Positions 1 to 22,826 of a DNA stretch of 64,000 bases are shown here, in pieces. The position numbers were made by a program, and so were the translations under genes. The stretch spans positions 1 to 64,000 of the forward strand of contig CAWCIZ010000004.1 of NCBI GenBank assembly GCA_963795855.1, in the 5' to 3' direction. The notes beneath the pieces were generated by a model. That model did not search any database and had not been told where the DNA came from. It saw only the letters and a list, made by a program, of their open reading frames with translations. The number at the start of each line of letters is the position of its first letter. Position 1 is the first letter of the stretch. Source of the stretch: Vulcanimicrobiota bacterium (GTDB lineage: Bacteria > Vulcanimicrobiota > Vulcanimicrobiia > Vulcanimicrobiales > Vulcanimicrobiaceae).

Positions 1-4
1 TGTT

Positions 5-601
5 TTGGATTTCTTGGTGAAGACGCCAGTTCGAGAGATTCGCGCCTTCGACGCAGATTGGTTCCACGTACATAACGCCTTCAGGTCCCCGGGAAGATTG
101 GAGTCTTCCGAGCTTGGCAAGACGAAAGCTGCCGTATATCAGGGAAGATATGAGAATTTTCGACTCGGGCTTTCAATCGGACCGAAATTCATTGATCGGT
201 CCGATGAAACGGCCTTGCGAGGCGTCACATTCGCCTTCGTGTGCGTTGACAAGGGCTCGTCGCGATCCGCGATCTTCGATTTATTAATTGCGCAAGGTAT
301 TCCGTTCATTGACGCTGGAATGGGGCTTGATCGTAAGAGAGGGCCGATCAACGGAATGCTTCGAATGACGCATTACTCTGCTGAATCAGGACCACAGACT
401 CGCGACAAAGGTTATGACCCGCTTACGGATCGCCCGGACGACGTTTACAGAACAACGATTCAAATCAGCGAGCTTAATGCGTTGAACGCATCCCTCGCCG
501 TCATTCGGTTCAAACAACTTCGAGGTTTCTACTACGAAGAAGTTTCTGACGTAAACCATTTATTTGAGATACGCGATCTCAAGATAGCAGGCGGAGAATA
601 A
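5..601 (+). CDS. ThiF/E1-like adenylyltransferase, C-terminal part (5' truncated by window)
   Basis: FDADWFHVHNAFRSPG...GKTKA...FAFVCVDKGSSR...PFIDAGMG motifs typical of the ThiF/MoeB/E1 family. Confidence 0.8.
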   Translation: MDFLVKTPVREIRAFDADWFHVHNAFRSPGRLESSELGKTKAAVYQGRYENFRLGLSIGPKFIDRSDETALRGVTFAFVCVDKGSSRSAIFDLLIAQGIPFIDAGMGLDRKRGPINGMLRMTHYSAESGPQTRDKGYDPLTDRPDDVYRTTIQISELNALNASLAVIRFKQLRGFYYEEVSDVNHLFEIRDLKIAGGE

Positions 602-3115: not shown

Positions 3116-3898
3116 CTAGAGCCATCGTCTATCGATCATGCTAGCGAAGATTCCGAGTGCGCGCTGTTGGGAACTTCGACGCCGATCTGTGGCAATGGCG
3201 TATGCTTTGTCAGGAAAGGAATGGTCGAGCGCATTGAGAGCAGGGTTGGCCTTTACTGCGGACCTCATCGACTTCCACTTGGGCCAGACCGAATTTAATT
3301 CGTCGATGATGAATATCGGAATCTCGCAATTCGTGCGACATTTTATTCCGAATGCATCGCGTTCTTCGGCCGTGGCTTCGGGCGGCGCAGTGCGCGTAAA
3401 CTTCCAAGAGTATGATTCTGGAAAGTTAGATTGCTCTTCCGCCATCGTTGCAAAGAGATCTTTGAGCGTGCTGGCGTTAACAAGGCCGACGACGATGGGT
3501 GCTGCGCCTGCGAGTGACTCTAAAGCGTCACCTTGAATACGAGATTTGAGCGTCCGGCGCCAAAGTACACCAACCGCATCCGAAAAGTGGCCGGCGGCAT
3601 ATAGCGCGACGAGCCCATTGCACCAGGTGATCCCCGATAAGCGTAGCGCTTCACCGATATCCCACGCGACGAACGGACCGGGACGGAGCTTCTGATCAAT
3701 ATACCGGCGGAGCATCCGTTCCGCGTTAGCGGCGCGTCGAAGTTTCGACTTGGACTTCAGTTTGTGCACTTTGGCAAAGTTCGACGCGAGGGTGAGCATC
3801 GACACGGCCTTTCCCCGCCCCACTAGTTTGCGGAGAAATGTTGAAAACCGGACACCATGTAGCAAATTTGTCCCCGACATCCTACGGGTTCCGGGCAT
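3116..3898 (-). CDS. hypothetical protein, possible N-terminal HTH regulator divergent from the Xis-like gene
   Basis: 260-aa ORF; ERMLRRYIDQKLRPGPFVAWDIGEAL resembles an XRE-type HTH; divergent arrangement. Confidence 0.4.
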   Translation of the reverse strand: MPGTRRMSGTNLLHGVRFSTFLRKLVGRGKAVSMLTLASNFAKVHKLKSKSKLRRAANAERMLRRYIDQKLRPGPFVAWDIGEALRLSGITWCNGLVALYAAGHFSDAVGVLWRRTLKSRIQGDALESLAGAAPIVVGLVNASTLKDLFATMAEEQSNFPESYSWKFTRTAPPEATAEERDAFGIKCRTNCEIPIFIIDELNSVWPKWKSMRSAVKANPALNALDHSFPDKAYAIATDRRRSSQQRALGIFASMIDRRWL

Positions 3899-3983: not shown

Positions 3984-4295
3984 ATGCAATCTGTCATCTT
4001 GCAGAGTCAGCCAAACGCCGCTATGCTCAGCCCAGGCAGTGAGGGAGATCGAATGATTACAGAATGCGACTTCCCGCACCGAACTCAACGGGATACGCTT
4101 ACGATAGGTGAAGCCGCGGAGCGCCTTGGTATAACAATTGAGCTCGCCAGAAAAGCGGCTCGCGCTGGCGACCTTCCAGCGATCAAGTTTCGCGGGCGGT
4201 TTCTGATCCTTCGCAAGCAATTCGATCGGATGTTAGAGCTCGAGGATGTCGCTGACGCTTCTGCTTTTGACGCCGCGCAAAAGGCCTCGCACTAA
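3984..4295 (+). CDS. excisionase-like HTH (HTH_17/MerR-like) DNA-binding protein
   Basis: TLTIGEAAERLGIT...ARAGDLPAIKFRGRFLI. Confidence 0.75.
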   Translation: MQSVILQSQPNAAMLSPGSEGDRMITECDFPHRTQRDTLTIGEAAERLGITIELARKAARAGDLPAIKFRGRFLILRKQFDRMLELEDVADASAFDAAQKASH

Positions 4296-4558: not shown

Positions 4559-4636
4559 ATTAGCGACGACGTAAAGCATGGCGCTGCCCATGCTTCGGAA
4601 ACAGTTCAGGCTGCGGCCAGCGCGTATGGGCGTTAG
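4526..4636 (+). CDS. putative 36-aa leader peptide overlapping the tnsA start
   Basis: GAGGAG RBS then ATG at 4526; TAG at 4634-4636 lies just inside tnsA (ATG 4626). Confidence 0.45.
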   Translation: MLPQLVALQARISDDVKHGAAHASETVQAAASAYGR

Positions 4637-5277
4637 AAAAGTCGGGCCTAATCGGCGCAGCGTTACGGGTCACGTTCCAAGCAAGAAGAAACCAGGGCTT
4701 GTCGCGTTCGAATCAACGCTCGAACGCGATTTCATCATGCTTCTTGAATTCGATCCAGCGGTAAGAACCATAGCCGAACAGCCTATACGGGTCGTATATG
4801 ACGCCGGCAGCTACACGCCGGATTTTTATGTCGAGTTCCATGGTCGTCATGCGCAACCACTTCTAGTAGAAGTAAAATACCGCGATGACCTCTTCACGTC
4901 ATGGAAAGAGCTGCATCCGCGGTTCAGGGCGGCAATGCGATACGCTCGAACCAGCGATCGCCGTTTTAAAATTCTAACGGAATGCGAACTACGAACTACG
5001 CGGCTGCGGAACGTAAAACATCTATGGCGGTACCGCACACTTGAAGTAGATCGGGAGCTGATGTGATCGTATCGTCGCGGATCTGAAAGTTACCGGTCCA
5101 ACTACTATCGAGCAACTTCTGGAAACCATGCGTATCCAAGTAGCCGAGCGAAATGCAGTAATACCGGTAATATGGCATCTAATCGCGATCACCGTAATAT
5201 CTGCGAACCTCGATGACCAGGAGCTGACGCTGCAATCCATGATTGCAATTCAGCAGAACGAGTCAGGCCAAAGTTGA
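4626..5277 (+). pseudogene. tnsA: TnsA endonuclease (frameshift near 5062)
   Basis: MGVRKV...SVTG...FESTLERDF...EQP...YTPDF...VEVK; the C-terminal domain (VIWHLIA...NLDDQELT) continues in another frame from 5065 to the stop at 5277. Confidence 0.85.
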
Positions 5278-7052
5278 TTGCGCGGCCTGACGGTTTAACG
5301 CCAGACTCGCAGCTCGCGTCGCTCATGGAAGTACCTACTCAGGAATCGCCGCAAGATGAAATGCCCGAGGCGGCAGATCGCCCAGAACTCCCGCCTACAC
5401 ATACTATTCCGATACGCGAATGGGAAAAGGCCTGCGCACGACGTGACGCGATCCGAGCGGCCTTTGAAGCGGGTCCTCCGTATTTGCCTCATCTTCGCGA
5501 AGCGAGCGAAAAGACCGGTTGTAGCATCGCCACCCTCTATCGCCATCTTAACCGCTACAGCTACACTCGAGATACGCGTTCTCTTCTCGATCGCGGCAAG
5601 GGCGAACCGCGCCGCTCACGTCTGCATCCCAAAGTTCTGTCTATCATTCGCGAAAAGTTCCAGACGCGCTTCCTATCGGTGGAAAAGCTAAAGCCCTCAG
5701 AGATAAGTTTCGAGGTACGCGCGGAGTGTTGGCGGCAACAGTTACCTCTTCCTCACGCAAACACCGTTCGCAACCACATCCATAAAATGAGGGCGCAATT
5801 GGGTGAGCGCCGCGTTCAAATGAAACGAGGAAATAAGAAGATGGCTGAAACGATGTTTACCCCACGCCACGGCTCTTTCAATGAACACGACAGGCCAGGC
5901 GAGCTTGTCCAAATCGACCACACCAAACTTGACGTGGTACTTGTTGACGAAGATCAGCGCCTGCCCATTGGGCGCGCGTTCATCACAGTTGCGCTCGACG
6001 TTGCAACCAGAATGGTTATTGGATTGTGCATCTCATTAGACCCAGTGGGAACGCTGTCGACTGGCCTTTGTCTGTATCACGCGATGCTTCCAAAGGATGC
6101 CTGGTTGAAAGAACGTGATATCAACAACGTGTGGTCCAGCGTCGGAATGCCCGAGGCACTGCATTTTGACAACGCCAAGGAATTTCTCGGAAAGACGGTC
6201 CAACGGTTTTGCGAAGCGAATGATATTCGCATCGAGCATCGCCCTCTTGGCGTGCCGCATTACGGAGGCCATATCGAGCGACTCATCGGGACACTAAATC
6301 GCGCAATCCATAAAATTCCCGGGGCGACGTTTGCGAACATTCAGGAGCGCGGTGATTATGATTCCGAGGCATATGCGTGCATGACACTGCGAGAATGCGA
6401 AACGTACGTAGCAGAATGGATTACTGGGACGTACCATCGCCGAGTCCATGCTGGCTTGGGATGCACACCGAACGCTGCCTTCGATAGGGCGATGAACTCA
6501 CCCGATAATCCGTGCTTCGGTAAGCCACTGCCGAGCGATTTAGAAAAGGCGCGGCTTGATCTCTTGCCATGGGAGTACCGCACGGTACAAAAGACCGGCA
6601 TCACGTGGGACAAGCTCGTGTATGTCGGAGAGGTTCTCGGCCCGTATACGAATACTACCAATCCTGACGGCACAAGTAAGCAGTTCATCGTCGCTCGCGA
6701 TCCGCGAATGATCAATCAGGCGTACTTCTTTGCGCCTGATGTAAACGAGTACTATGTTCTAAAGCTTCGCAATCCGACGAGGCCGCACGTGAGCAAATGG
6801 GAATGGGACGAACTGCGCCGGCGTCTCCGCAAGGACGGAAAAGCGGACGAGGACGAGGATGCGATTTTCCAATCTCATTTCAAGCAACAGCAGATGATCG
6901 ATGCAGCGGTTTCCAAGACGAGGGGAGCGAGGCGCGAAAGAGAGCGTAAACGGCATCATGCGAAGGCCGTCATATCAGAACCGCCACGTGCCGCAGAACA
7001 AACAGAGTGGGAGACAGACGTAGAGCCGCTCGAAGGAGCGCGAGCATGGTAG
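5274..7052 (+). CDS. tnsB: TnsB/TniA DDE transposase (Mu-like)
   Basis: QIDHT, ALDVATR, HFDNAKEF and GHIERLIGT catalytic motifs; N-terminal HTH. Confidence 0.95.
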   Translation: MIARPDGLTPDSQLASLMEVPTQESPQDEMPEAADRPELPPTHTIPIREWEKACARRDAIRAAFEAGPPYLPHLREASEKTGCSIATLYRHLNRYSYTRDTRSLLDRGKGEPRRSRLHPKVLSIIREKFQTRFLSVEKLKPSEISFEVRAECWRQQLPLPHANTVRNHIHKMRAQLGERRVQMKRGNKKMAETMFTPRHGSFNEHDRPGELVQIDHTKLDVVLVDEDQRLPIGRAFITVALDVATRMVIGLCISLDPVGTLSTGLCLYHAMLPKDAWLKERDINNVWSSVGMPEALHFDNAKEFLGKTVQRFCEANDIRIEHRPLGVPHYGGHIERLIGTLNRAIHKIPGATFANIQERGDYDSEAYACMTLRECETYVAEWITGTYHRRVHAGLGCTPNAAFDRAMNSPDNPCFGKPLPSDLEKARLDLLPWEYRTVQKTGITWDKLVYVGEVLGPYTNTTNPDGTSKQFIVARDPRMINQAYFFAPDVNEYYVLKLRNPTRPHVSKWEWDELRRRLRKDGKADEDEDAIFQSHFKQQQMIDAAVSKTRGARRERERKRHHAKAVISEPPRAAEQTEWETDVEPLEGARAW

Positions 7053-7948
7053 ACAATTCGGGCGACGATCTCAACCACCTTACCGGCGAGGCTGCCGCGC
7101 AGGCGAAACTCGATAACGATACGAGGATCGCTTTAGTCCGAGAGCGCTTGTGGATTCCTACGAAGCATACCCTGCGAATTCATCGCCGACTCGAATATCT
7201 GCTGTCGCATCCAAAGACGAGCAGTATGCCGAATCTGTTGCTTGTCGGTCTCTCGGGAAGTGGCAAAACCACCCTCATAGAGGAATTCTTGGCTCGACAT
7301 CCTCGTTATGAGGACGAGGCGCAGGAATGTTCGCGTATTCCGGTCGTCTTCTGTAATGCGCCGCCCGAGCCTGACCTCGGTGGTTTTTATAATGCGATCT
7401 TGGGCGGCATGGATCTCCCCGCAGATAACAAGCGCATCGACATGCGTCGTCTCCATGTCGAAGACATGCTTGACGCCGTCCATGCGCAACTGTTAATCAT
7501 GGATGAGATTCAGCAGTTTCTCCTGGCTGGCACCAAGATGCAGCGCATCCTCCTGACGGCGCTCAAGAGTTTGAGTAATGCCCTGGACATCCCGATCGTT
7601 GCGGTTGGTACACGCGAGGCATTGAGCCTATTCGGAGAAATCGACGCACAAATCGCGCGGCGGTTCGAAAAGGATGAAATCCCCAAGCTTACGTTCATCC
7701 GCGAATTTGCCCGATTACTGAAGACCTTTGAAACCCTTATCCCGCTAAGGAAACCGTCGAACCTCACAGAGCACAGTATGGCGCTCCGGCTGTTTGAAAT
7801 GTCACGCGGCACCATCGGCCGGCTTGCCAGGACACTCTCGGAAGCGGCAGTCTTCGCAATCGAGGACGGCGACGAGCGAGTCACTCTAGAGATACTGAAG
7901 AAAGTTATGACAGCGGAAATCTACGGGTCCGGCGATCCAGCCGCATGA
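7007..7948 (+). CDS. tnsC: TnsC/TniB AAA+ ATPase
   Basis: Walker A GLSGSGKT, Walker B LLIMDEIQ, QIARRF; follows tnsB. Confidence 0.93.
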   Translation: MGDRRRAARRSASMVDNSGDDLNHLTGEAAAQAKLDNDTRIALVRERLWIPTKHTLRIHRRLEYLLSHPKTSSMPNLLLVGLSGSGKTTLIEEFLARHPRYEDEAQECSRIPVVFCNAPPEPDLGGFYNAILGGMDLPADNKRIDMRRLHVEDMLDAVHAQLLIMDEIQQFLLAGTKMQRILLTALKSLSNALDIPIVAVGTREALSLFGEIDAQIARRFEKDEIPKLTFIREFARLLKTFETLIPLRKPSNLTEHSMALRLFEMSRGTIGRLARTLSEAAVFAIEDGDERVTLEILKKVMTAEIYGSGDPAA

Positions 7949-9216
7949 GCGGCCGCAATAAGTGCCATAGCCTTCTGCTGGGACATACGGCACCGCGCGA
8001 CGACGAGCTGTTATCGTCATGGCTTGTTCGGCTCGCTGCGCAAAATCGGATGAAGCTGCACTCCTTTTGCAAGATGCTCTGGCCGGGAGCTGCGATTTGG
8101 AATCGCGACATCGATAATTCTGTTACACCGGAACTACTCGGTGTACTGGCGGAGCGAACGGGCGTCGACCTGAAGCGGGCAAGTGAGACCGCACTCAAGT
8201 CCTACGAAGGGTTCATCTTCGAGAAGCACAACCCAAACGGGACGACAATCTGGATATTACCACTGGGAATCTACCACAGAACGCGCCTTCGATTTGGATT
8301 GCACTACTGCCCCGATTGCCTCGACCAAGGGATGGTTTACTACCGTAAGATTTGGCGACTGGCGTGGAGCGTCATGTGCGTGGAGCATAACAGACCTCTT
8401 CTCGATAGGTGTAGGTGCGGCTCCCCCATCGTTTTTCATCGTGGCGACCTCGGCGATAGTCAATCGGTCGGCACAGAGCTCGGGCTAACGAAATGCCATC
8501 ATTGCAATGCTGACCTGAGGCGCCTTCAGGGCGGCGCGTGCGATATTTCGCTGACATGTGCAGCGCTCGAAACTCAAAGGACGTGTATGGCAGCCCTAAG
8601 AGATGGCTATATCACGGTAGCCGCTGAGCGCATCGAATCGGTCTTGTTCTTCGCAGGCTTTAGACAATTGCTCCAAATTCTCGCGCACGGTCGGCTCGCT
8701 GTACAACTAAGAGATGCAGGCGCTCCGTGGCGACGTTCCCTACCCGACGTCTCTTTCACAAGCGGCCGAAATTCCAATGTTGAGCGGCTTGCCGTCGAGG
8801 ATCGAACCGTGCTAATGGCTCTAGCGGGCGAGTGGCTTTGTGACTGGCCGGGATCATTCGTTACCAGCTGCAAGAAAGCCGGTTTGACCGCGACGGACAT
8901 CTGCCGCAACATGCGTTACGTGCCATACTGGCTAGCAAAGGTCGTCGACGAGCATTTCGGTTCAGGGACGTATAGTCCGTGTATCGATGAAATAGCCAGT
9001 GCAATAAGTTATCTGCGCAACCGCCAAGAGCCCACCACGAAGACGTCGGTGTCTAAGATGCTTGGAAGAACGGACGTCTTTCGAAAAAGACACTCCACTT
9101 TCTACTGGATGAGCCACAAGACGACGTTTCATCAACAATCAAAGCTGAAAGTAGGTGACGCGATATGGACTCAATATTGCCGTTTCATGCCAAACCAAAG
9201 CCCGATGAAATATTAA
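7945..9216 (+). CDS. tniQ: TniQ/TnsD-family target selector 1
   Basis: DELLSSWLVRLA, YCPDCL, WRLAWSVMCVEH and LLDRCRCG zinc-binding motifs; ATGA overlap with tnsC. Confidence 0.92.
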   Translation: MSGRNKCHSLLLGHTAPRDDELLSSWLVRLAAQNRMKLHSFCKMLWPGAAIWNRDIDNSVTPELLGVLAERTGVDLKRASETALKSYEGFIFEKHNPNGTTIWILPLGIYHRTRLRFGLHYCPDCLDQGMVYYRKIWRLAWSVMCVEHNRPLLDRCRCGSPIVFHRGDLGDSQSVGTELGLTKCHHCNADLRRLQGGACDISLTCAALETQRTCMAALRDGYITVAAERIESVLFFAGFRQLLQILAHGRLAVQLRDAGAPWRRSLPDVSFTSGRNSNVERLAVEDRTVLMALAGEWLCDWPGSFVTSCKKAGLTATDICRNMRYVPYWLAKVVDEHFGSGTYSPCIDEIASAISYLRNRQEPTTKTSVSKMLGRTDVFRKRHSTFYWMSHKTTFHQQSKLKVGDAIWTQYCRFMPNQSPMKY

Positions 9217-10310
9217 GTTCCTGGATTATTCGAATCGCCAGCGCGAATGGGCTCGCCCCCGAGTCTTTGACGTCAGAGCGCTGGGATCGCGATCTTGACT
9301 CGAATCCAGCGAAATCACTGCTGCGACGGTTAGCAGCTTTGACTGGCGCGACAGTCGCGGCAGTCGCCGCGACGACACTTGAATCCTATGAAGGGACCCT
9401 GTTCGAATCACGGTCGGACAGTTCGCTGCCGCAATGGATTTTGCCGCTCGGAATCTTCGGCGATAAACGACGCGGCTATGGTATGCAATTATGCGCTCTA
9501 TGCCTCGAAGCGGACCCGTATTTTAAAAAGGCCTGGAGACTGGCGCTTAGCGTCGCATGCTGTGAGCACCGGGTACTGCTTCGGGACCGTTGCGCTGGCT
9601 GCGGCAGACCAATTACCTATCACGACCTTCCGCGCGTTCGAAGAGCTGGACGACTGCAACCGCTCATGGCATGTCCTGGTTGCAAAAGCTTTTACACGAA
9701 CTCGAGCGGACTCGTAGCTGCTGCGCCCGACATCCTTGAAGCGCAGGGAACGCTGAATGACGCCATGGACTGCGGATTTGCAACAATCAATTCTGAGCCG
9801 GTGCATGCGTTGCTGTTCTTTCAAGGCCTCCGTAGCATGATTGGCACGATGATTACAGGTAAGCGGAGTACGGGCTTGCGCGCTGCTATTTCCCAATCCG
9901 GAACGACTGTAGCGGCGGCATCGGGTTGGCGTAAGGGCGAGCGTTTCGAATTTCTCAACGTGGAAAAGCGCGCCGAGATCTTACATTTGATTCCGCGCTT
10001 GCTGGAGGACTGGCCACACAAGTTTGTTGCTGCCTGTCGTACAGCACGAATTCGTCGGTCCGATTTGCTGAATGGATACCGTTCGGTGTCGACTATTCCG
10101 TACTGGTATGCGTGCCAGATTTCTAAAATGACCAAGGCGCAATATAGGATGAATAGCCAAGAGATTTCGGCAATACTACGCTATGCTGAGTCCCAAGACC
10201 GAGAACCGCTCGAAACGCTTCGTTCGCTATTCGGAAGCATGGGCAATCTAGGTAATCAGAAGCAACTATTCGCTAATGCCCGAGCACTAGGCTGGTGCAA
10301 AGCGAGCTGA
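9165..10310 (+). CDS. tniQ: TniQ/TnsD-family target selector 2
   Basis: PKPDEILSSWIIRIA, LCALCL, WRLALSVACCEH, LRDRCAGCG. Confidence 0.92.
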   Translation: MDSILPFHAKPKPDEILSSWIIRIASANGLAPESLTSERWDRDLDSNPAKSLLRRLAALTGATVAAVAATTLESYEGTLFESRSDSSLPQWILPLGIFGDKRRGYGMQLCALCLEADPYFKKAWRLALSVACCEHRVLLRDRCAGCGRPITYHDLPRVRRAGRLQPLMACPGCKSFYTNSSGLVAAAPDILEAQGTLNDAMDCGFATINSEPVHALLFFQGLRSMIGTMITGKRSTGLRAAISQSGTTVAAASGWRKGERFEFLNVEKRAEILHLIPRLLEDWPHKFVAACRTARIRRSDLLNGYRSVSTIPYWYACQISKMTKAQYRMNSQEISAILRYAESQDREPLETLRSLFGSMGNLGNQKQLFANARALGWCKAS

Positions 10311-10946: not shown

Positions 10947-12035
10947 ATGGCAGACAACAGCAAGAAGCATACGATCGCGCGTGCCGATCTGTACAAACGC
11001 GTATGGGCGACGCCCATTCGTACACTCGCGACAGAATTCGGAATCTCGGACGTTGGTCTACGCAAAATCTGCAAGCGACACGATATTCCGATTCCTCCGG
11101 CGGGACACTGGATGAAGGTACAGTTCGGAAAAAAGGTCCGTTGCATTCCGCTTCCGCCCCGAAGGGCCGATCAAAACGAACACATTGACATTACGGAGAC
11201 ACCGCCGAAATTCGGCGGTGTGGAGCTGCCATCTGAAATACGCGAGGCAATTGAACAAGAGCGCAGCGCGGAAGAGCCGATTGCCGTTCCTAAATCCCCC
11301 AACCCGCATCCGATTGTTCAGGCGTGGGGACCAGCGAAGCAGCCGAGTTTCGGACCACCATCGTTTACGCCCGCTGCTGAGGCCCGGAGGCGGCGAATCG
11401 CCACCGTGTTTTTTCGGGAAATCGAGAAACGCGGAGGAAAGATTGTCCAAGACGGTCTCGATCTAATTGTAACAATGTTCGGCCAAAGGTTCGAGATCAC
11501 GCTCCGAGAAAAACTGAAACAAATGCACGTGCCTCTGTCCGACAGCGACAGGCGCCTGGGCTGGAACGTCGACCGCGGATACAATACGGAGTTGCGACCT
11601 TCAGGGCTGCTTCAATTTCGAATTGACACGTACATAACCGGGGTTCAGCGCGAGTGGACGGAATCCGAAAGTAAACCACTCGAAGGGCGTATTCGAGTCA
11701 TCATTATTGGGCTGTATCTTGTTGCTGCGGCACTGAAAAGCCAGGCCGAGGAGCGTGCCGAGCGGGAGCGGCAGTGGCTCATTCAGGAGAAGCGCCGTTT
11801 AGAGGTTGAGGAGCAGCGGCGAAAAGAACGCGAGCGAGTCAAAGTGCTCATTGATGAGGCGAACGCATGGGAAAAGGCAAATAGAGTCCGCCTGTACATT
11901 ACGGCTAGAAAAAGTATTCTACGTGATGCTAGCACAACTGATGAGTGGGTTGAGTGGGCAAACCGAGTTGCGGAGTCTATAGATCCGCTTACATCAGCCT
12001 CGGCACACGGTCCATCGCCCCTAGAGGAGGACTGA
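10947..12035 (+). CDS. hypothetical mobile-element protein with N-terminal HTH and C-terminal coiled coil
   Basis: LYKRVWATPIRTLATEFGISDVGLRKICKRHDIPIPPAGHW; E/R-rich helix; W..WA...A..IDPL C-terminus. Confidence 0.7.
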   Translation: MADNSKKHTIARADLYKRVWATPIRTLATEFGISDVGLRKICKRHDIPIPPAGHWMKVQFGKKVRCIPLPPRRADQNEHIDITETPPKFGGVELPSEIREAIEQERSAEEPIAVPKSPNPHPIVQAWGPAKQPSFGPPSFTPAAEARRRRIATVFFREIEKRGGKIVQDGLDLIVTMFGQRFEITLREKLKQMHVPLSDSDRRLGWNVDRGYNTELRPSGLLQFRIDTYITGVQREWTESESKPLEGRIRVIIIGLYLVAAALKSQAEERAERERQWLIQEKRRLEVEEQRRKERERVKVLIDEANAWEKANRVRLYITARKSILRDASTTDEWVEWANRVAESIDPLTSASAHGPSPLEED

Positions 12036-12144
12036 TCCGGCGGGCTCGTTACTCGCGCGCTAAAAAAAGGCGATTCCACCTCAACAAAACACGTACTTCG
12101 TCAACAACGCACGTGCATGAGGTTGCACCACCGCTGATCACATC

Positions 12145-13231
12145 TTACGATTTCACAAGACGGATCGTTCGGTCGTTCCCATGGCGAACTTTACCCCGGC
12201 CTCCCCCGGGTAATCCCGTCACAACAAGCCCAAAAACCACCGCATCAAGATCCTCAAGATTGCATTTTAGATCGCGAGCGACGTCCGCTTTTGTTATTCC
12301 CTCGCTACGGAGCATTTGAAAAACCTTTCCAAGAACGAGCGACATTTCTGGTGACGCTGGCTCCGGCTCATCGGTGCGGTAGCCTCGCTGAGACATTTCA
12401 ACACACAGAGTGCGATAATGCCAATCCGAAATTAAGCTTTAGGGCGTGAAGGCGATACGCGAGCGCTGCTACGGAAACAATCCATTGCTTCTTCAATTGG
12501 ATCAGCGCGCTTAAACTTGGAAACACCGGGGCCCGTTCCAATATACTGCTGCGCGGCATTAAGAACGCCGAGGCGAACCGATTGGCTTCATGCTCGGCTT
12601 GTTTGCCGTGCACGCCGGCCTCTCGGTGCAGCACTAAATGTCCCAATTCGTGAGCGGCGTCAAAGCGACTATGTTCAGCGGATTTCAACGTATTCAAAAA
12701 GACAAATGGAGTCGCGTCTCTCCAGAGTGAGAAGGCGTCGACATCGGTACTCTCCGCCATCGAAAACACGCGAACACCCTTCGACTCAAGCAGATGGACG
12801 ATGTTACGTACGGCCTTTTCCCCAAGACCCCACTCATGCCGAAGGGTGATAGCTGCCGTTTCCGGGTCCTCTTGTCGAAGATCTGGCAAATCACAAGGCG
12901 GCAATGCGAAACGGCGTTCCATCCAGTCATGAAGCAGCATAGCAATTGCGCCCGACGCCAACGCGGCCTCACGCGTAGATGCCGTCATTCGAGCCAACGA
13001 GCGGAAACTGGCCGTCTCCGCGGTTGGCTCATGCAAATCGTCTCCGAAAAAGAAGTCCACCGGAAAGGTTAACGCTTCCGCAAGACGCGCGGCCGTCTCG
13101 GCCGTCGGACTATACTCGCCGCTTTCATAAGCCGAGATGGCTCGCAAGATCACACCAGCACCTTCCGCAAGGCGCGTTTTACTGTAACGTCGCTTCTTGC
13201 GGGCCACGCGAAGACGGGAAGGATTAAACAT
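12145..13231 (-). CDS. XRE-HTH + ImmA/IrrE (COG2856) zinc metallopeptidase; frameshift near 12420
   Basis: MFNPSRLRVAR HTH; RFDAAHELGHLVLH (HExxH); EANRFASAFLMP; C-terminus continues in ORF 12145..12396. Confidence 0.85.
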
Positions 13232-13235
13232 TTCG

Positions 13236-13907
13236 CTAGGCCCGGCGGCGTATGTCGATGTCCACGTCCGGACCGAAGTCGGGCTCGAATGTCTTCCTGT
13301 AAGCATCTCCATCAAACGGAATCACCGGCAAGATGATTCGCTCTTTCCAGCCGACTATTTGGCCGCTTTCGATGAACACGGGCAAAGAAAGTTCGGATCT
13401 GATTTCCTGAATATCGTTGTGAAAAAGCAGCGTCCAAGTGGCTATGTTACTGCCATCGCGGCTCGAGCGCACGGGCGCCGGCGCTGGCAAATTTGGAAAA
13501 AGTGCGATCTGTGTTGCGTTGGACGTAACATAGACTTCCGTGCACGGGCCCTTGGTGTGCTTTGTGCTAGGTGTTTCGCTCGGGATTCCAGTGCTTTCGT
13601 TGCCCGAGGAAACGCAAATCGCGATCGTACCGTTGGGATTGACCGTGGTCGGCAGCCCGTTGTCGTTATTTCGATGCCATCCCACCGCAACCAAGTGCTC
13701 GCGGAGCGCGCGAAGGGTATCGTTCCACTGATAAAATCCGTGAGCGATCGGCGCATCGTTGAGCGTCCTCGATATGCGCGATACATGGCCGGCGCGCACC
13801 GCCTCGAGTAGCGGCGCAACGCTCAAGCCCAGCCGTGCTAAGGCGATATGGACCTCACGCGGGTCCCACCAGACTGCCTCTTGCAAAGTGCAACTCCCGG
13901 GCGACAA
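13236..13907 (-). CDS. hypothetical protein upstream of the HTH-peptidase, putative toxin partner
   Basis: 223-aa ORF ending 4 bp before the peptidase start; TWTLL...EIRSELSLP...WKERIILP. Confidence 0.6.
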   Translation of the reverse strand: MSPGSCTLQEAVWWDPREVHIALARLGLSVAPLLEAVRAGHVSRISRTLNDAPIAHGFYQWNDTLRALREHLVAVGWHRNNDNGLPTTVNPNGTIAICVSSGNESTGIPSETPSTKHTKGPCTEVYVTSNATQIALFPNLPAPAPVRSSRDGSNIATWTLLFHNDIQEIRSELSLPVFIESGQIVGWKERIILPVIPFDGDAYRKTFEPDFGPDVDIDIRRRA

Positions 13908-14146
13908 CGCCCATCTACCGATTATGCTACATCATTTGATGTTGAAAAACAAGTAGACGGCTCGTTCCGTCCTCGCAGCGCCTCGGGAGTGCCGGCGCCG
14001 AGGCAATTCCGCGCACGAAAGCGCACTCCTAGACTTCCGCGGCGAGGCTCGACGGAGCACCGTATCGCCTTCGTGGGAAAATTCAAGAGGGTTTTACGAA
14101 CGCGTGAGGCGGCCTGAGGGCCGATTTCGACGGAGAAAGGAATAGC

Positions 14147-14611
14147 GTGCCGGATCCGATTGGTATGACGGCAGTACAGGAGCCGTGGCGATATGGTTTT
14201 GGCGAGGAAGGCGATCCGATCGACAGTGTCGTTGCGATCGCGTTCAAGTCGGGCGATTTGGACGCCGTGCGTGAGATGTTCCGAGACCTGGCCATTGCGA
14301 TCCGATTGCACATCCCAGAGAAGGGAGCGCCGCATTATATCGTCATGGCTACCGGCGGCGTTGCGCAGGCCGCAGAGGTGCCATCGAATATTCTTTCGCG
14401 GCTCGGAGGCATCATTGAAGTAACTACCGTGCTGGAAGCAGGCGTCGATCGATTTCAATTACCGGCTTCGCTGACAACTTGCGCTTTGATCGCAAATTTG
14501 ATCGGCATTGAGCCTGCGACGTCGTATGCGGTCCCAATGGCGTACGCTGCGGCTCCCCTCGCGCCTGCGGAAGTCGTAGCTCGTGACCGCCCGCATCAAT
14601 CCACTGATTAA
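14147..14611 (+). CDS. hypothetical protein
   Basis: 154-aa ORF with upstream AAGGA RBS. Confidence 0.4.
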   Translation: MPDPIGMTAVQEPWRYGFGEEGDPIDSVVAIAFKSGDLDAVREMFRDLAIAIRLHIPEKGAPHYIVMATGGVAQAAEVPSNILSRLGGIIEVTTVLEAGVDRFQLPASLTTCALIANLIGIEPATSYAVPMAYAAAPLAPAEVVARDRPHQSTD

Positions 14612-14644
14612 AGCTATGGCCTCGTTAATTAAAGCGCAGATCGA

Positions 14645-15658
14645 GTGGGTCGGTCACTATACGACATCGCCGACAAGCCATGGGTGGATGTTTCGCAAGC
14701 AAGCCGGCTGATATTCATGACGCTGTCGGTAGAACAGGCGCGTGCGGCGTTTCAGAACGCAATACCGCGTGGCCGCGACGAGTTTGAGAAAAAGGCCCGC
14801 GATCGGTTGCGAACCATCGCTTACGAATCAAATTATCCGCAGAAGTATCCCATCGAAGTGCTTGAAATGGCGCAGGCGGAAGTGCGCCTTCGGCACGAAA
14901 TGGCGGCACATCGCGTAAAGCAATTGCTTGACTCTGGCTGGCGGCCACATTCCGAATACGTGAGTGCGATACGCGCAACCTTCATCGATATGTTCGCTGG
15001 ATTCGACCACTGGAAGAAAGATCCGTCGTCTGATTTGTATCACCGCGTGGAAACGGCATTTAGAGAGGTCGGTCGCCACGATGAAGATCAGCAGTTGAGG
15101 CATCGCCGTGCTCTCGGTGAGGTTCAAGTAGAAGCGGCAAATGAGGCGGTTTCGGACCTCGAAATGCATGCAGGAGTACTCATGCCTTTGGTTGCCGCGT
15201 CTATAAAAAGCGACGGTTTTCCGATAATTACGGCGCCAGCAGAAGTGGAATGGAAGTACGATGTGTTTATTAGCCATGCGTCCGAGGATAAAGCGTCGTT
15301 TGTAAATGCATTGGCAAGCGCCTTGCGCGAGCGCACAGTTAACGTGTGGTTCGACGCATTTACCTTAAAATTGGGTGATAGTCTACGCGAGACGATTGAT
15401 GAGGGTTTACGCACTTCGCGGTATGGTATTGTCGTGCTCAGCAAAGCGTTTTTTGCGAAGCAATGGCCGAAGTTAGAGCTTGACGGACTAGTGGCGCGTC
15501 AGACTGGGGACGGGCAGAAAGTGATTTTGCCTGTGTGGCATGACACCTCATATGAAGACGTTGCTTCTTATAGTCCTATACTTGCGGGGCGCCTTGCCGC
15601 GAAGTCTGCAGACGGCTTAAAGAAAGTGGTTGATGATGTTCTGGAAGTGATTCGCTAA
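14645..15658 (+). CDS. C-terminal TIR domain protein
   Basis: YDVFISHASEDK...VWFD...GDSL...IDEGL..SRYGIVVLS..FF.KQW..LEL. Confidence 0.92.
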   Translation: MGRSLYDIADKPWVDVSQASRLIFMTLSVEQARAAFQNAIPRGRDEFEKKARDRLRTIAYESNYPQKYPIEVLEMAQAEVRLRHEMAAHRVKQLLDSGWRPHSEYVSAIRATFIDMFAGFDHWKKDPSSDLYHRVETAFREVGRHDEDQQLRHRRALGEVQVEAANEAVSDLEMHAGVLMPLVAASIKSDGFPIITAPAEVEWKYDVFISHASEDKASFVNALASALRERTVNVWFDAFTLKLGDSLRETIDEGLRTSRYGIVVLSKAFFAKQWPKLELDGLVARQTGDGQKVILPVWHDTSYEDVASYSPILAGRLAAKSADGLKKVVDDVLEVIR

Positions 15659-15701
15659 AGTGGCGGAAAGCAAAAAACCATATGGCTAACATCACGGAGG
15701 C

Positions 15702-16376
15702 TCAGGAGTCGCCTCCACCTTCGATGTCGTCCCACGTATAGGGATTTCCGAAAAGCGAATATCCCTGAATAAGATATTGCGGGATATCACTGTTCTCCGG
15801 AATCCACGGGCAAGCAAATAACTTTCGTATTTCCGACTCCTCGATGGCTATCTGCGGCGGAACGCCGTGCTCGCGAAGCCGGTCTATGTATTTTTCCAGC
15901 ATATCAATGGTCACGTCCAACGCCGAGTCGCGCTTGCTGTAGGCGTGCCATAAGCGTGCTTTCGGAGACCGATCGAGATGGACGTATGCTTCGTCAACGA
16001 ACGCTATTACCGCTTCAGTAGCATGTTTTATAAGGTCAATATCGGATTTGATTTCTGCATGCTGAGGCAGCCGGGAGAAGCACCGTTCAGCTAGTTGATA
16101 ATATTCGTCGATTTCCTGAAGAAGCCCAAGCAACGATGCGGCGTCTTTATGTGGCTTCACGATGCGGCGAACGAGCACGGCTGCAGCCTCGCTAAAAACC
16201 TTCACCAGGTCACCGCCGACAATGCCGCCATCGTCGTCGATATAGGGATGACTCACTAACGCCCACAACCACACTTTACGTATTTGTCGAAAATCTCTAA
16301 GCTCGACGAATGCGTCCCACAAAATTTCAAGGTCACGGCGCCATTTTTCACATTTCTGGTCGTTCACCGACTCCAC
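15702..16376 (-). CDS. hypothetical helical protein, possibly HEPN/AbiU2-like
   Basis: VRRIV...ASLLGLLQEI...FVDEAYVHLD resembles the AbiU2-type HEPN layout, but the canonical R is missing. Confidence 0.4.
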   Translation of the reverse strand: MESVNDQKCEKWRRDLEILWDAFVELRDFRQIRKVWLWALVSHPYIDDDGGIVGGDLVKVFSEAAAVLVRRIVKPHKDAASLLGLLQEIDEYYQLAERCFSRLPQHAEIKSDIDLIKHATEAVIAFVDEAYVHLDRSPKARLWHAYSKRDSALDVTIDMLEKYIDRLREHGVPPQIAIEESEIRKLFACPWIPENSDIPQYLIQGYSLFGNPYTWDDIEGGGDS

Positions 16377-16489
16377 GTCCTATTGGAGTGACGCACTTTA
16401 GACATTGTCAACACGGTCATAGCAGTGCGCGTCGTAATCTCACCTCTGCGCCTCATCGGCCCTTTCGATGCGGCGACTGTATATCGATG

Positions 16490-17599
16490 CTAGAAAGCCT
16501 CACGCTTTACATAACCAGGGCGTCCGGCGTCAACGTAACGGTATTGCTCAATCGCTCCGAGCATACGCAATGTGTCTGCTTCCAGCGGTATATTCGCAAA
16601 GCGATTGTGAAAAGCAACCAAAGGAGGATACCGCTCACTGCTACCCACAAATTCACGACGATTGTAATAGATTACGGCACTAATCCGGCGATTGCGCTGC
16701 GGGTGGAATATCCCGTCGGCGTCGCGGGACGCACCGTGTGACGTCGCGGTGTACCAGAAGCGTTCGGTGCCGAAACAGGCATCCTCAACGGTATCGACGT
16801 CCAGCCACTCCCCTACGGTTCCGTCAACGACGACAACACCTGCGCCCTCGGCAGGTAACTGTTTTACTGCATCTTTAATTGAGCGGCGCACGCGCTGCGT
16901 CTGCGTTTCATCGAAGACGTACCCCTGCTGCATCACGCCTATGTGGGCCCGGTCGCCTCGCGAACGTCCCCCGATCGCGGCACGTATGCCGTGCGCATCG
17001 AGCACACGTTTACCGCGTCCGCCGCTCGCGTGAAATTCCGAGACCATGGCTTTTATTGCTTTACCAAGCGCATGCACATCAACGTTAGGTTCTACGTCCT
17101 CCGCATCAACATGGATTCTGTATGGCAACGGCAATGTAGCTAGTTGACGCTGCAATTCCTCAATAACCGCGTTTGTATGTCGGACTTTGGCTTCATCGCG
17201 AACCTGCTTCACCTCCCACCAGGTGTGCGGCGAAGTGGCTGCACTGAACTCTGGACAGCGGCCGTTCTTCATTGTCGGTTCGAACGTGATCTCGGCACCC
17301 GCACGTGCGAGGCGCGCAGCAAGGTCGAGCTCCGTGCGAGCCGATTGGATCATTTCATATTCGGTATTGTGGAAGCGGCGCTCATACTTCCCCCACGCAC
17401 CCTTGTCCTCAAGCAGCGTTAGATCCGCGATGATACCGGCCCAGAATGCATTGACATAGTCCTCGTCGGCATCCTGGCACAACAGAAAAAGTAAATAATT
17501 GTCAATTCGCGTGCCGGTAATTTTTTCAATGAACGCATCGTCATAAAACCGGCGAAGCGGCGGAACGCGTTCAAGCGTTGCCTGCGCCCGTTGGAGCAA
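16490..17599 (-). CDS. hypothetical protein, PD-(D/E)XK-like fold
   Basis: TELDLA...FEP...CPEF...WWEVK; KDAVKQLP...GVVVVD; ISAVI...HN.FA. Confidence 0.5.
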   Translation of the reverse strand: MLQRAQATLERVPPLRRFYDDAFIEKITGTRIDNYLLFLLCQDADEDYVNAFWAGIIADLTLLEDKGAWGKYERRFHNTEYEMIQSARTELDLAARLARAGAEITFEPTMKNGRCPEFSAATSPHTWWEVKQVRDEAKVRHTNAVIEELQRQLATLPLPYRIHVDAEDVEPNVDVHALGKAIKAMVSEFHASGGRGKRVLDAHGIRAAIGGRSRGDRAHIGVMQQGYVFDETQTQRVRRSIKDAVKQLPAEGAGVVVVDGTVGEWLDVDTVEDACFGTERFWYTATSHGASRDADGIFHPQRNRRISAVIYYNRREFVGSSERYPPLVAFHNRFANIPLEADTLRMLGAIEQYRYVDAGRPGYVKREAF

Positions 17600-17845
17600 C
17601 GTCGGGCGATCGTGGAGCTCCCAGGTCTTGAAGCGTTATGACATTACTCATAAAAAAGTGCTCCACCGCGGCCACGCGAATCGGGAGAGGGGTCGGGCGG
17701 CATAGGGCCCGCGGTCGCCCAGGATGCGGGACAGGTTGGTTATATTCCGTATCTTGTCAGTATGGTGAATATGGCGTATATTGCCTATGGGCGAGTATAT
17801 CACCCCAGGCTGCTTTTCGCACAAGAAAGGTCAACAACTCGGCCT

Positions 17846-18766
17846 ATGAATCCCACCGAGGTCGAATTCGCCGTCAAAGCGCTGATCTCCAAGCCGTATG
17901 ACCCTGCGACCTTTGCATATGATCTAATCGCCATCTACAACACGCCGAAGATCACGGTGGGCAAGCTTAAAAGTGGCCAGACCAACGTCGCTACAGCGCG
18001 GGGTGATCTACTCTGGAAGAAGCATCTGTTCTTCCGTCCGGCCGCGTCTACTGATGACGTGGCGGCCGTCGCCGACGCTTTGGCTTCGGATGCGCTGACG
18101 AAAAAATATAAGCCGCGCTTCGTCCTCGTTACTAATGGTGAACAAGTCCACGTGCGAGACCTTACACTGGACGAAACGTGTAATACCGAATTTGCTCGCC
18201 TAGATGAGTCGTCGGATTTTTTGGGGCCACTAGCCGGCTTCGAACGCCGCGCCGCTGCCGTCGAACACCCGGCGACGGTGAAAGCGACCAAACGTCTCGC
18301 AAAACTTTATGACGCGATTCTTGCGGCCAATCCGACGTGGAGCGACGGCAATCACACACATGAGTTGAACCTGTTTATGACCCGTATCCTTTTCTGCCTT
18401 TATGCGGAAGATACCGGCATCTTTGATACGCCGCAGATTTTTTCTAATACAGTCGCACAGTATACGAAAGAAGATGGTAGCGACGTCTGCGCCCCTGTTA
18501 GATCGCCTGTTCCGTGTAATGAATGTCCCCGAATGGAACAGGGCGCCGGCTATCCCCAAGATCGAGGCTCGCTTTCCGTTCGTAAATGGCAGCTTGTTTG
18601 AGGCTACGCTCCCGATACCAGAGTTCAATCGTACGGCTCGGCGGCTCTTCCTCGAGTGTGGCGAACTCGATTGGAAAACAATCAACACGGACATTTTCGG
18701 TTCGATGATTCAAACGATTGCCGAGCCGGGGTCGCGAGGCGACCTAGGCATGCATTATACGAGCAT
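17846..18766 (+). pseudogene. MmeI-like/YeeA type IIL RM methyltransferase, N-terminal remnant truncated by IS3
   Basis: LNLFMTRILFCLYAEDTGIF, FPFVNGSLF and DW..IN.DIFGSMIQ...LGMHYTS, then the IS end; frameshift near 18490. Confidence 0.88.
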
Positions 18767-18806
18767 TGAAGTTGCCCGGCTCTCGTGGAGAGTTTTAGAT
18801 TGGAAA

Positions 18807-19649
18807 TCACGCCGCGGTTTCCCGCTCATATGCGGCGGGAGAGCGGTAGCCCAGAGCTGAGTGGCGACGATGCCGATTGTACCAGCCCTCGATGAAGTCG
18901 AAGATAGCAAGTTCGGCTTCCTTATGCGTGCGGAACCGGTTCCGATCGAGTAGTTCGCATTCGAGCGTCGCATTGAAGCTCTCGCACATCGCGTTGTCGT
19001 AGCAATCACCAACTGAACCCATCGACGGACGAACTCCAGCTTCCCGGCACCGAGATCCGAAAGCAATCGAGGTGTATTGCGTTCCTTGATCGGAATGATG
19101 AATGACGCTTTCGGGCCTACGACGTTCAATCGCCATGTTGAGCGCATCGAGTACAAGTTGCGTGCGCATGTTCGAGCTCATTGCATAGCCGACGATTCGG
19201 CGGCTAAACGCGTCGAGAACGACTGCAAGAAACAAGAACCCGGCGTAGGTTGGGATGTACGTGATATCAGCAACCCACAGTTTGTCTGGTGCGTTAGCGA
19301 TGAATTTTCGATCGACAAGATCCGGTGCGGGTCGAGCATCTCGATCACGCACGGTCGTCCGAACGCCCTTACGGCGGCTTGCGCCTACGAGATTTCGCTC
19401 GTTCATGAGTCGCGCAAGTCGGTCGTTGCTCAGGGTAATGCCCTCGTCTTTCAACTCGGCCTTGATGCGTGGTCGACCGTACGTGTTGCGAGAGCGTCGA
19501 TGAATTGCCTCGATGCGATCACCAAGTTCAATGTCGCGCCGCGCTTGCGCTGACGGTGGACGATTGAGCCACGCATAGTACCCGCTGGCGGAGACCTCCA
19601 GAACCCGGCACATCGTGGAAATGTGGAATTTGGCCTGGTAGCTCTTCAC
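18807..19649 (-). CDS. IS3 transposase OrfB (rve integrase core)
   Basis: WVADITYI, HHSDQGTQY, DNAMCESF, YNRHRRHSALG. Confidence 0.95.
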   Translation of the reverse strand: MKSYQAKFHISTMCRVLEVSASGYYAWLNRPPSAQARRDIELGDRIEAIHRRSRNTYGRPRIKAELKDEGITLSNDRLARLMNERNLVGASRRKGVRTTVRDRDARPAPDLVDRKFIANAPDKLWVADITYIPTYAGFLFLAVVLDAFSRRIVGYAMSSNMRTQLVLDALNMAIERRRPESVIHHSDQGTQYTSIAFGSRCREAGVRPSMGSVGDCYDNAMCESFNATLECELLDRNRFRTHKEAELAIFDFIEGWYNRHRRHSALGYRSPAAYERETAA

Positions 19650-19963
19650 GAGTCGGAAGATTTCTTGGGGATCACGTCGGTCTCCCGAGCAAACCAGGCC
19701 GCGGCTTTTGACAAGATTTCATTCTCGATCGTGAGTCGCTTGTTTTCACGTCGAAGTTTCGAGAGTTCTGCTCGTTCTTCGCTGGTCAATCCGTCGGTGC
19801 GCTTGCCAGTATCGAGATCGACCTGCTTTTCCCAATTGCGAATCGTTTGTGGTGCAAGCTCGAATTCGGCGGCCAACTCATCTATGCGGCGACCGGTACG
19901 CAGCAGTTCAAGAACTTTATGCCGGAAGTCCGGCGGGTAGGAGTGCGGACGCTTTTTGCCCAT
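19646..19963 (-). CDS. IS3 transposase OrfA
   Basis: YPPDFRH...LAAEFEL..QTIRNW HTH; LRRENKRL..ENEILSKAAAWFA. Confidence 0.92.
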   Translation of the reverse strand: MGKKRPHSYPPDFRHKVLELLRTGRRIDELAAEFELAPQTIRNWEKQVDLDTGKRTDGLTSEERAELSKLRRENKRLTIENEILSKAAAWFARETDVIPKKSSDS

Positions 19964-20017
19964 TGGTGGACCCTTCTCCGCCAAAGCGGAAGTGTCCACG
20001 AGAGCCGGGCAACTTCA

Positions 20018-21325
20018 CTTGGCATTGGATATCACTTTTATAGTGGGTCCTATTTAGAGGCCATCGATGAGGTCCTCGATACAACGAAAAAAACGATCAT
20101 CCACATCCCCAACGTTAACTCCGCGGAAACGCCGATGGAAAAGACCCGCCAAGTCGATACCATGCTCGAAAAAATGGCTGGCGGCGACTCGAGTTTTGTT
20201 GAACGCAACGCTACCACGGGCTTCTATCACGTTACTTGCCCGGACGGCCGCCTACTAAAAGTAGCAGATCTCGTCGACGATAGCCCTTATCGCGAACAGG
20301 TGCTCGAAAGTTTGCGCAGCGTTGAGCATCGCGAGGACTTGGACCTGATCATTGCGTTAGGTATGGCGAAGGAAGGCTTCGATTGGGTGTGGTGTGAGCA
20401 TGTCCTGACGGTAGGCTATCGCAACTCGATGACCGAGGTGATCCAAATAATCGGTCGAGCGACGCGCGACGCCGAGGGCAAAACGCATGCACAGTTTACG
20501 AATCTCGTCGCAGAACCGGTCGATGACCGCGCCGTTGTGGTAGACGCCGTCAATAACATGCTGAAGGCGATCTCGTGTGCGTTAATTATGGAGCAAGTAC
20601 TTGCGCCAAACTTTAACTTTCAAACTCGAACGCCCGATGCTGCCCCTGAAGTCCCCGGCCCGGGCGTTCCGATCGAGATTCGTGGCTTGCAGGAGCCGTC
20701 AACCGACCGGGTGCGCGATATCGTACAAGATCAGCTCGATGAGTTAAAGGTACACGTCCTAAATGATCCGCATATCCAAACGGCGATTATCCATCCTGAC
20801 GCGTTTACGCCGGCGGAAATTAATACGGTGCTTATTCCGCGTGTTATCGAACGCACGTATCCGGAGCTAACAGACGAGGAAGCGAATCAAGTCAGGCATG
20901 CACTTTTGCTTGACATTAATTTCAAGAACGCGGTCGCGCCGGATCCATCTGCTCCAGGGACCGCTACAGCAGATGAAATTGAAACGCGGCGCGAAGGTGA
21001 AAATGTTCTCATCAAGCTCGCAAAAAGATTTGTCAACCTCGACGAGCTGTCCATTGACCTGATCGACAGCATTAACCCCTTCGAACACGCCTACGAAATC
21101 TTGGCGAAACATCTTGATGAGCGCGTGCTGCGCACAATTCACAGCACCGTAGTCGCCGGCCGGTTACCCATGAGTGATGAAGAAGCGGCGCAGTTGTGGC
21201 CGTCCATAAAGGCATTCGTTTTCAGCCGCGAGCGGGAGCCGAACCTCAACGCACAAGATCCAAGGGAGCAGCGCCTCGCGCATGGTCTCGCGATCATCCG
21301 CGCTGCCAGGAGGGCAGCTGAACGT
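20018..21325 (+). pseudogene. YeeB-like SF2 helicase, C-terminal remnant (N-terminus lost at the IS)
   Basis: KKTIIHIPNVNS, IIALGMAKEGFDW, QIIGRATRD; no Walker A present. Confidence 0.8.
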
Positions 21326-22564: not shown

Positions 22565-22585
22565 CCCGCTTCAGAGAGCAAAACT

Positions 22586-22810: not shown

Positions 22811-22826
22811 GGCGAAGGGACGCAAA

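Follow-up and report, generated by a model that had tools for sequence, protein, structure and literature searches.

A Tn7-like transposon family that probably reaches the Tn6022 site in comM without TnsF

A 64,000-nucleotide stretch of DNA from a Vulcanimicrobiota bacterium (GCA_963795855.1, contig CAWCIZ010000004.1, positions 1 to 64,000; hereafter the window) holds, together with a second contig of the same genome (C5), a complete Tn7-like transposon of ~58.2 kb inside comM, a gene for DNA uptake, at the spot also occupied by the Acinetobacter resistance islands. We propose that this element probably belongs to a widespread TnsABC-TniQ(-TnsE) family that inserts at the comM site of Tn6022 without TnsF, and that one of its two TniQ proteins, TniQ1, is likely, judging from sequence comparisons, to select comM directly and alone. 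A first-pass annotation of the window, made from the letters alone, had already suggested a distinct, TnsF- and Cas-independent route to comM, and no tnsF or cas gene was found in the element. It had placed the emphasis on the dual TniQ, and this was misplaced: dual TniQ loci are common and polyphyletic (998 loci; Faure 2023, PMC10293859), and the missing TnsF is the unusual feature. What is new is the widespread TnsF-free route to the Tn6022 site, with the dual TniQ the lesser point. TnsF is essential for AjTn6022 (PMC10293859), TnsABC and TniQ are insufficient for comM, and Tn6022 elements in comM of Acinetobacter baumannii universally carry orf3/tnsF (PMC11014353).

Results

A complete Tn7-like element inside comM

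Contig C4, which begins with the window, belongs to a 3.06 Mb genome (G000; 86% complete) that carries a single tnsABC. The transposition genes, the end lying in the window and the cut target gene are arranged as follows.

4626..5277, + strand: tnsA (PF08722), split by a one-base frameshift near 5063
5274..7052, + strand: tnsB, the DDE transposase (Pfam)
7007..7948, + strand: tnsC, a TniB-family AAA+ ATPase (PF05621, E 1e-46)
7945..9216, + strand: tniQ1 (PF06527), TniQ core plus a small terminal helix-turn-helix (HTH); true stop probably 9158
9165..10310, + strand: tniQ2 (PF06527), a fast-evolving paralogue, accessory on our reading
56364..56423, - strand: end A (tnsA-distal), TGT terminus at 56423 plus three contiguous putative TnsB sites
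56424..57286, - strand: 5' part of comM (PF13541 and PF01078 matches), cut at codons ALVGG/G

At end A, the 5' part of comM runs straight into TGT and three TGAGAAA repeats, with cores at 56404, 56384 and 56365. End B lies on C5, 1.8 kb ahead of window base 1, where a TGT at C5:91626 and three repeats of the TGAGAAA motif adjoin the 3' half of comM (PF13335). The element thus has the TGT...ACA ends with repeated TnsB sites that are a Tn7-like trait. A reading frame open at the end of C5 carries on into window base 1, the two contigs overlapping by 3 bases, and the element therefore measures ~58.2 kb with both ends known. The two comM halves on C4 and C5 rejoin in frame, and the insertion is at a conserved comM site in fixed orientation, as in the Tn6022 family. 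The target duplication of the window element is 4 bp (GCGG; the comM 5' flank ends in GGCGG) in an indel-rich assembly, and duplications of 5 bp were found in eight relatives (G227, G369, G400, G043, L149, L164, L171 and L206).

One-base shifts interrupt tnsA, tniQ1, comM and other genes, and because they recur across several genes we infer that they are assembly errors. The tnsA gene reads as an N-terminal part to 5066 and a C-terminal part at 5062-5277, and its intact orthologues encode 227-233 amino acids (aa). The first-pass annotation had described two overlapping tniQ genes of 423 and 381 aa. There are indeed two genes (PF06527 matches at E 1.5e-23 and 5.4e-25), but the 423-aa length and the 52-nt overlap most likely stem from a shift of one base around position 9100. 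Read in the alternative frame, tniQ1 has a tail like that of its orthologues and stops at 9158, leaving 6 nt ahead of tniQ2 in place of the overlap; orthologues of tniQ1 end near 380-400 aa without overlapping tniQ2.

No TnsF, TnsE or Cas effector was found in the element

As references we used TnsB, TnsC, TniQ, TnsF and Orf4 of a Tn6022-type element carried by a plasmid of A. baumannii; its TnsF and Orf4/TnsE were labelled by gene position and size following the papers, and the record calls them hypothetical. The TnsF profile was built from 40 of 119 homologues, which are 22-63% identical to its first row and include three of recombinase length. Searched in six frames, G000 gave no TnsF (best profile E 0.26; control E 1e-198), and tblastn and phmmer were negative as well. 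The same profile found nothing in G043, G227, G369 or G400, and no tyrosine recombinase (PF00589) lies inside any of five elements including that of the window. The TnsE profile had no match in G000, G043, G227 or G247. PADLOC, run on 107 open reading frames (ORFs; window ORFs of at least 115 aa plus three from C5), returned TniQ, TnsB and TnsC models and weak generic HTH, TPR and similar matches, with no Cas effector, and the element contains no CRISPR-like array or Rfam match. It therefore lacks two traits of Tn6022, a tnsF in operon with tniQ and an opposite-strand tnsE (orf4). With both ends located, Pfam, the profiles and PADLOC bear out the first-pass description of tnsABC and two TniQ ORFs inside comM with no visible TnsF, TnsE or Cas.

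The cargo (10947..56363) yielded no target-selector gene by Pfam on 80 ORFs or by PADLOC on the 107 ORFs. We rejected as a selector the 362-aa ORF 3' of tniQ2 (10947-12035), which is absent from G043, G227, G369 and G400; it had one short match in the metagenome loci described below and none in the genome loci.

Relatives in the host family use the same codons with one or two TniQs

TniQ1 had matches at E 1e-20 in 9 of 348 genomes of the host family. G227 and G043 share with the window element the dual arrangement, the TGAGAAA motif at the ends and the comM codons; their duplications are of 5 bp, and in G227 the whole anatomy lies on one contig. TnsB of the window is 50-53% identical to TnsB of these two and 32% identical to Tn6022-type TnsB. 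G369 and G400 carry a single TniQ at the same comM codons and in the same orientation, with 5-bp duplications and the next gene on the opposite strand; their TniQs are 41-44% identical to TniQ1 versus 31-34% to TniQ2. G247 has a degraded dual element at a contig edge, with comM intact and a TniQ1 that has lost the YHR motif; comM is likewise uninterrupted in G113, G137 and G193, whose TniQs are more distant. In all four dual elements (G000, G043, G227 and G247) tniQ1 and tniQ2 are adjacent and open, and three of the four lie in comM. At the G043 junction (L044:1290-1320), about ten extra G/C-rich bases separate the duplication from the comM frame and may be the scar of an earlier insertion.

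A widespread family splits comM at one site

A scan of genome contigs with a single protein found nothing, and one with an alignment found family members. The alignment scans gave 465 metagenome matches, of which the best 80 were fetched, and 292 genome matches, of which the best 80 yielded 79 loci, 159 loci in all. A scan of viral contigs found no family member. Sixty-six of the 159 loci have comM split at the GGG codons (63 distinct at 95% TniQ identity, 42 at 60%); this count is the 68 split-comM flags of our script minus L186 (junction intact) and L102 and L153 (other site), plus L176. Many of the remaining loci are too short to reach an element end; of the 73 that include tnsA and 1 kb or more of upstream DNA, 48 have the split. 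The hosts of the 66 loci span eight named phyla, namely Pseudomonadota (32 loci), Acidobacteriota, Bacteroidota, Vulcanimicrobiota, Verrucomicrobiota, Deinococcota, Binatota and Saccharimonadota, and 22 have no phylum label. The junction falls 15-21 nt before the PGE codon in 44 of 47 scored loci (17-18 nt in 29). Apart from three loci in the opposite orientation (L159, L166 and L167), the elements mostly face one way. Sixty-two of the 66 have a single TniQ and no TnsF, three have a TniQ-TnsF fusion and one has a second TniQ.

Several variants accompany this pattern. Five loci (L102, L126, L150, L153 and L200) form a separate clade (TnsB support 100) whose tnsA-proximal ends mark another insertion position in comM, immediately ahead of the codons for KE(S/G)GRFDL around residue 75. 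The orientation is the same as at the main site, which is likewise occupied in L102 and L153. A TniQ1-family core is fused to a TnsF-like region in L152 (9989-12016), L160/L077, L083 and L091/L169 (675 and ~930-940 aa), and these fusions, of which L152 and L077/L160 are at the comM site, bear an extra integrase N-terminal domain. Acidobacterial elements (L135, L142, L144, L148, L151, L069 and L162) adjoin another gene, which we take by eye to be an RNA methyltransferase, and not comM; five Acidobacterial non-comM loci have a second, larger TniQ with a changed motif, a separate dual state in which one copy is of the YHR type. In L064 (12142-13665) the element inserted in comM carries an intact second copy of comM, and in L057 (2352-7367) tniQ is inverted relative to tnsABC in an element still at the comM site. 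L089, L105, L174, L178, L183 and kin form a subgroup at comM with TniQs of ~520 aa and a 150-aa tail without a Pfam family; by eye the tails seemed recombinase-like, but no integrase family matched them.

TnsF is rare and TnsE common among relatives

The TnsF profile had no match in 43 of 46 host genomes searched whole, including eight isolate assemblies. The three positives are two fusions and G459, whose TnsF belongs to a neighbouring Tn6022-type element with TniQ and TnsF at the same site and in the same orientation. All-against-all clustering of 6193 ORFs of at least 80 aa revealed one widely shared gene outside tns, of ~620 aa, whose product is a homologue of Tn6022 Orf4/TnsE (hhalign 97.4%, E 1.2e-11). 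Its profile matches 38 of 46 host genomes and none of the four dual-clade genomes; it matched no solved structure and Pfam TnsE_C weakly (1 of 26 members, E 0.058). An element from an isolate assembly, L149, has both ends and a 349-aa TniQ with neither TnsE nor TnsF. TnsE was ruled out as the comM selector because complete elements in comM, L149 and G369 among them, do without it.

TniQ1 resembles the single TniQs and TniQ2 has diverged

TniQ1 and TniQ2 are 32.6% identical over 368 aa. The first-pass annotation had read their shared blocks as a sign of tandem duplication. The blocks (SYEG..FE, WILPLGI, FF.G.R and PYW) are family-wide TniQ-core motifs that also occur in single-TniQ relatives, so they are not by themselves proof of local duplication. 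In free TniQ trees (123 of 182 rows, and 45 chosen rows; quick search), TniQ1 and TniQ2 are separated: the dual-clade TniQ1 falls within the single TniQs (support 98-99), and the TniQ2 copies form one long-branched clade (support 99). A tree constrained to hold each TniQ2 with its TniQ1 partner was slightly better (6.5 log-likelihood units; approximately unbiased (AU) test, p=0.655); duplication, the probable origin of TniQ2, is therefore allowed by the trees and not demonstrated by them. TnsB of G000, G043, G227 and L052 forms one clade (support 100), which points to a single origin of the dual state in this group.

Of 109 family-conserved positions, TniQ1 of the dual clade keeps 92-95 and TniQ2 70-77. 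TniQ2 copies lack H111 (97% conserved), R112 (100%) and R166 (94%) and keep the zinc-finger cysteines. Five TniQ2 copies that are 30-45% identical to that of the window have remained open over 336-407 aa and retain every zinc-finger cysteine. The C-termini of TniQ2 vary, the G043 copy ending in a transposase-type HTH (PF01527, E 2e-9). The AlphaFold2 model of TniQ1 (predicted local distance difference test, pLDDT, 87) matches TnsD and the TniQ of CRISPR-associated transposons (CASTs); the best Foldseek match is TnsD (8v32, E 1.6e-4, template modelling score 0.34). Prediction of a TniQ1-TniQ2 complex gave no answer (score 0.00, mark 0.32) and was used neither for nor against binding. The terminal HTH as sole specificity domain was ruled out, as short TniQs lack it yet use the comM site.

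Cargo and neighbouring genes

3116..3898, - strand: 260-aa gene divergent from tnsA; among the compared loci, tblastn homologues in dual-TniQ G043 and G227 only
3984..4295, + strand: excisionase-like HTH_17 gene upstream of tnsA, common to G043 and G227
1..601, + strand: cargo ORF continuing from C5 (in-frame join)
10947..56363: cargo, including an RmrA/RmrT pair, a TIR protein, an MmeI-type restriction enzyme broken by an insertion sequence, a T5orf172 helicase, AbiEi/ii, regulators and small enzymes

The divergent pair at 3116-4295 precedes tnsA only in the dual-TniQ genomes G000, G043 and G227 and may be a regulator or a TniQ2 partner. For the 260-aa gene there was no Pfam or Atlas match, and a protein search returned only itself. 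By PADLOC and Pfam the cargo includes defence and metabolic genes. An IS3-family element interrupts the MmeI-type restriction gene (17762-20017); its inverted repeats, each of 28 nt, lie at 18767-18794 and 19990-20017. At the tnsA-proximal end, window 1-1006 and L002:19171-20000 encode Multi-ubiquitin, DUF6791, an E1/ThiF-like ORF (labelled by eye) and DUF6527 in one operon, a putative ubiquitin-like conjugation cassette carried as cargo.

Discussion

We propose that TniQ1 would bind comM DNA, probably along the stretch encoding PGEISLA...VLFLDE (Walker B) on the side of the tnsA-proximal end, and would recruit a TnsC ring that places TnsAB, giving insertion 17-18 bp before the PGE codon. In Tn7 the tnsA-proximal end faces the bound site. 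TnsAB excise and join the element and TnsC spaces the insertion from the bound selector (PMC11014353), and TnsF binds comM toward the Walker B codons (PMC10293859). Short members that have no terminal HTH still insert at this site, so recognition of comM would lie largely in the ~330-aa core. TniQ2 would have been gained once, probably by duplication, in the common ancestor of G000, G043, G227 and G247, a small clade, and would be dispensable for comM. There is about an even chance, on the pattern of gene presence, that it serves a second targeting route in place of TnsE; the first-pass suggestion that the second copy provides an alternative pathway fits the data in this respect.

Several observations weigh against a direct, TnsF-free selection of comM by TniQ1. 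Most host genomes are incomplete metagenome-assembled genomes (G000 itself is 86% complete), and a partner too remote for sequence profiles would escape the search. In 25 of the 73 loci with tnsA and sufficient upstream DNA, no split at this site was seen within the fetched DNA (hand-corrected). TniQs of at most 360 aa occur at 14 of the 66 comM loci, and the HTH of TniQ1 (40 residues, ~344-383) is a weak TetR-like match (Z 5.5, root-mean-square deviation 1.5). Codon-wobble analysis of 38 target copies gave no clear bound motif, and the YHR motif was ruled out as comM-specific, being kept in Acidobacterial copies that adjoin another gene. With respect to TniQ2, the mutual exclusion with TnsE amounts to one evolutionary event, and G369 lacks both.

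TniQ1 might instead be an adaptor that needs a DNA-binding partner at comM, either a host protein or, in trans, the TnsF of a Tsy or Tn6022 element present at insertion. The Tn6022 TniQ, of similar size (371 aa), needs TnsF (PMC10293859, PMC11014353), trans recruitment has been proposed for short TniQs of the size class up to 360 aa (Faure 2023, PMC10293859), family TniQs of 323-358 aa without the last HTH reach the comM site, and TnsF has been fused to a family TniQ at least twice (L152; L077/L160). We nevertheless consider an adaptor unlikely, given the profile-negative host genomes with eight isolate assemblies among them, the distance to Tn6022-type TniQs, which are only 20-25% identical and lack the family YHR/FHR residues, and the retention of the site across eight named phyla, for which a rare helper is a poor explanation. 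Recognition of comM by a TniQ1-TniQ2 heterodimer, raised by the first-pass annotation alongside recognition by one TniQ, could account for the adjacent, open gene pair in the dual elements and the position of three of them in comM. Yet nearly all comM relatives, including G369 and G400 in the host family, use the same codons with one TniQ and no TnsF, so that a heterodimer is not needed, and the dual-clade TniQ1, nested among single TniQs, has kept far more of the conserved positions than TniQ2; we regard the heterodimer as very improbable, whereas recognition by a single TniQ fits the data.

For TniQ2, we think it doubtful, though worth serious consideration, that the protein is a regulator competing for TnsC or a slowly decaying duplicate and no second selector. 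Its long branches and variable C-termini would agree with this, as would the interference between two TniQ-family proteins in McCAST and PmcCAST (PMC9881144), and none of the dual-clade elements turned up at a defined second site. Against it, open frames and zinc-finger cysteines in five copies imply selection, and the Acidobacterial elements that pair a YHR-type TniQ with a YHR-less one adjoin a different gene. Finally, the comM-adjacent end could belong to another transposase or be an assembly artefact, given the 46 kb between end A and tniQ2, the many one-base shifts, the 4-bp duplication and a C5/C4 join made by a 3-base overlap and a continuous frame. The first-pass annotation had named a foreign end in advance as its test, and the end did not prove to be one: both ends share the TGAGAAA repeat, the comM halves rejoin in frame, G000 has one tnsABC, and close relatives have the same anatomy, which in G227 lies within a single contig and comes with a 5-bp duplication and the TGAGAAA motif at the ends. 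We give this explanation almost no weight.

The element has counterparts among several known systems. With Tn6022/AbaR (TnsABC, TniQ, TnsF and TnsE) the family shares the gene and codons, TGT ends, a 5-bp duplication, a TniB-type TnsC and, in most members, an opposite-strand Orf4/TnsE homologue; in G459 an element with TniQ and a free TnsF abuts the 3' half of comM in the same orientation. Unlike Tn6022, the window element and most relatives have no TnsF, and the window element is further set apart by the absence of TnsE and by its second TniQ; its proteins are 32% (TnsB), 33% (TnsC) and 23% (TniQ) identical to those of the A. baumannii Tn6022-type element. Other dual TniQ/TnsD elements (the loci of Faure 2023, Tn7017, I-B CASTs and parE elements) likewise have two tandem TniQ-core genes, probably from local duplication, but in the window both copies are of ~380-405 aa, not one large and one small, there is no Cas, and the home site is inside comM. 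Tn7 TnsD at glmS offers an analogy, a single TniQ-family selector acting on a conserved coding sequence with fixed offset and orientation, although the target differs, insertion here is inside the gene, and TniQ1 has a much shorter C-terminal region and 14% identity. Tsy (an active tyrosine recombinase with TnsF) and type I-B1 CASTs (CRISPR RNA) also target comM, and neither route was found in the window element. TniQ-TnsF fusions (3 of the 66 comM loci: L152 and L077/L160) resemble SCZ64694 (Faure 2023) in fusion architecture. By analogy we infer that the element works like a TnsD-type direct selector; by gene content it does not belong to Tn6022.

The routes to comM listed in the literature are Tn6022, CRISPR RNA-guided CASTs and recombinase elements (PMC11406308, PMC9881144, PMC11837452). 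One paper includes comM in general terms among the sites of TniQ/TnsD (PMC10201428), another marks yifB as a TniQ-recognised feature (bioRxiv 154229), and a term search found no mention of comM in PMC8649781 or bioRxiv 2025.07.27.667033. The searchable full-text literature gave no description of a TnsF-less comM family; most subscription work lies outside that search, and reviews or the supplementary figures of Faure 2023 may show such elements.

The TnsB tree places the window element apart from the one Tn6022 reference, and in a TnsC tree rooted on a TniB outgroup Tn6022 is nested among TnsF-less elements (support 92; AU p=0.239). We tentatively suggest that a lone TniQ of ~330-400 aa recognising comM may be the common and possibly ancestral state, that TnsF could be a later add-on, that the core could have acquired specificity for a second position in comM and for a different gene, and that a duplicate TniQ might have replaced TnsE for a second target. 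A TnsF-less family at the same codons would point to a compact site-specific system of four genes or, failing that, to a host partner yet to be discovered. The order in which target selectors are proposed to have been captured would need revision, natural TniQ variants with different targets would become available for specificity mapping, and the inactivation of comM by transposons would extend well beyond Acinetobacter.

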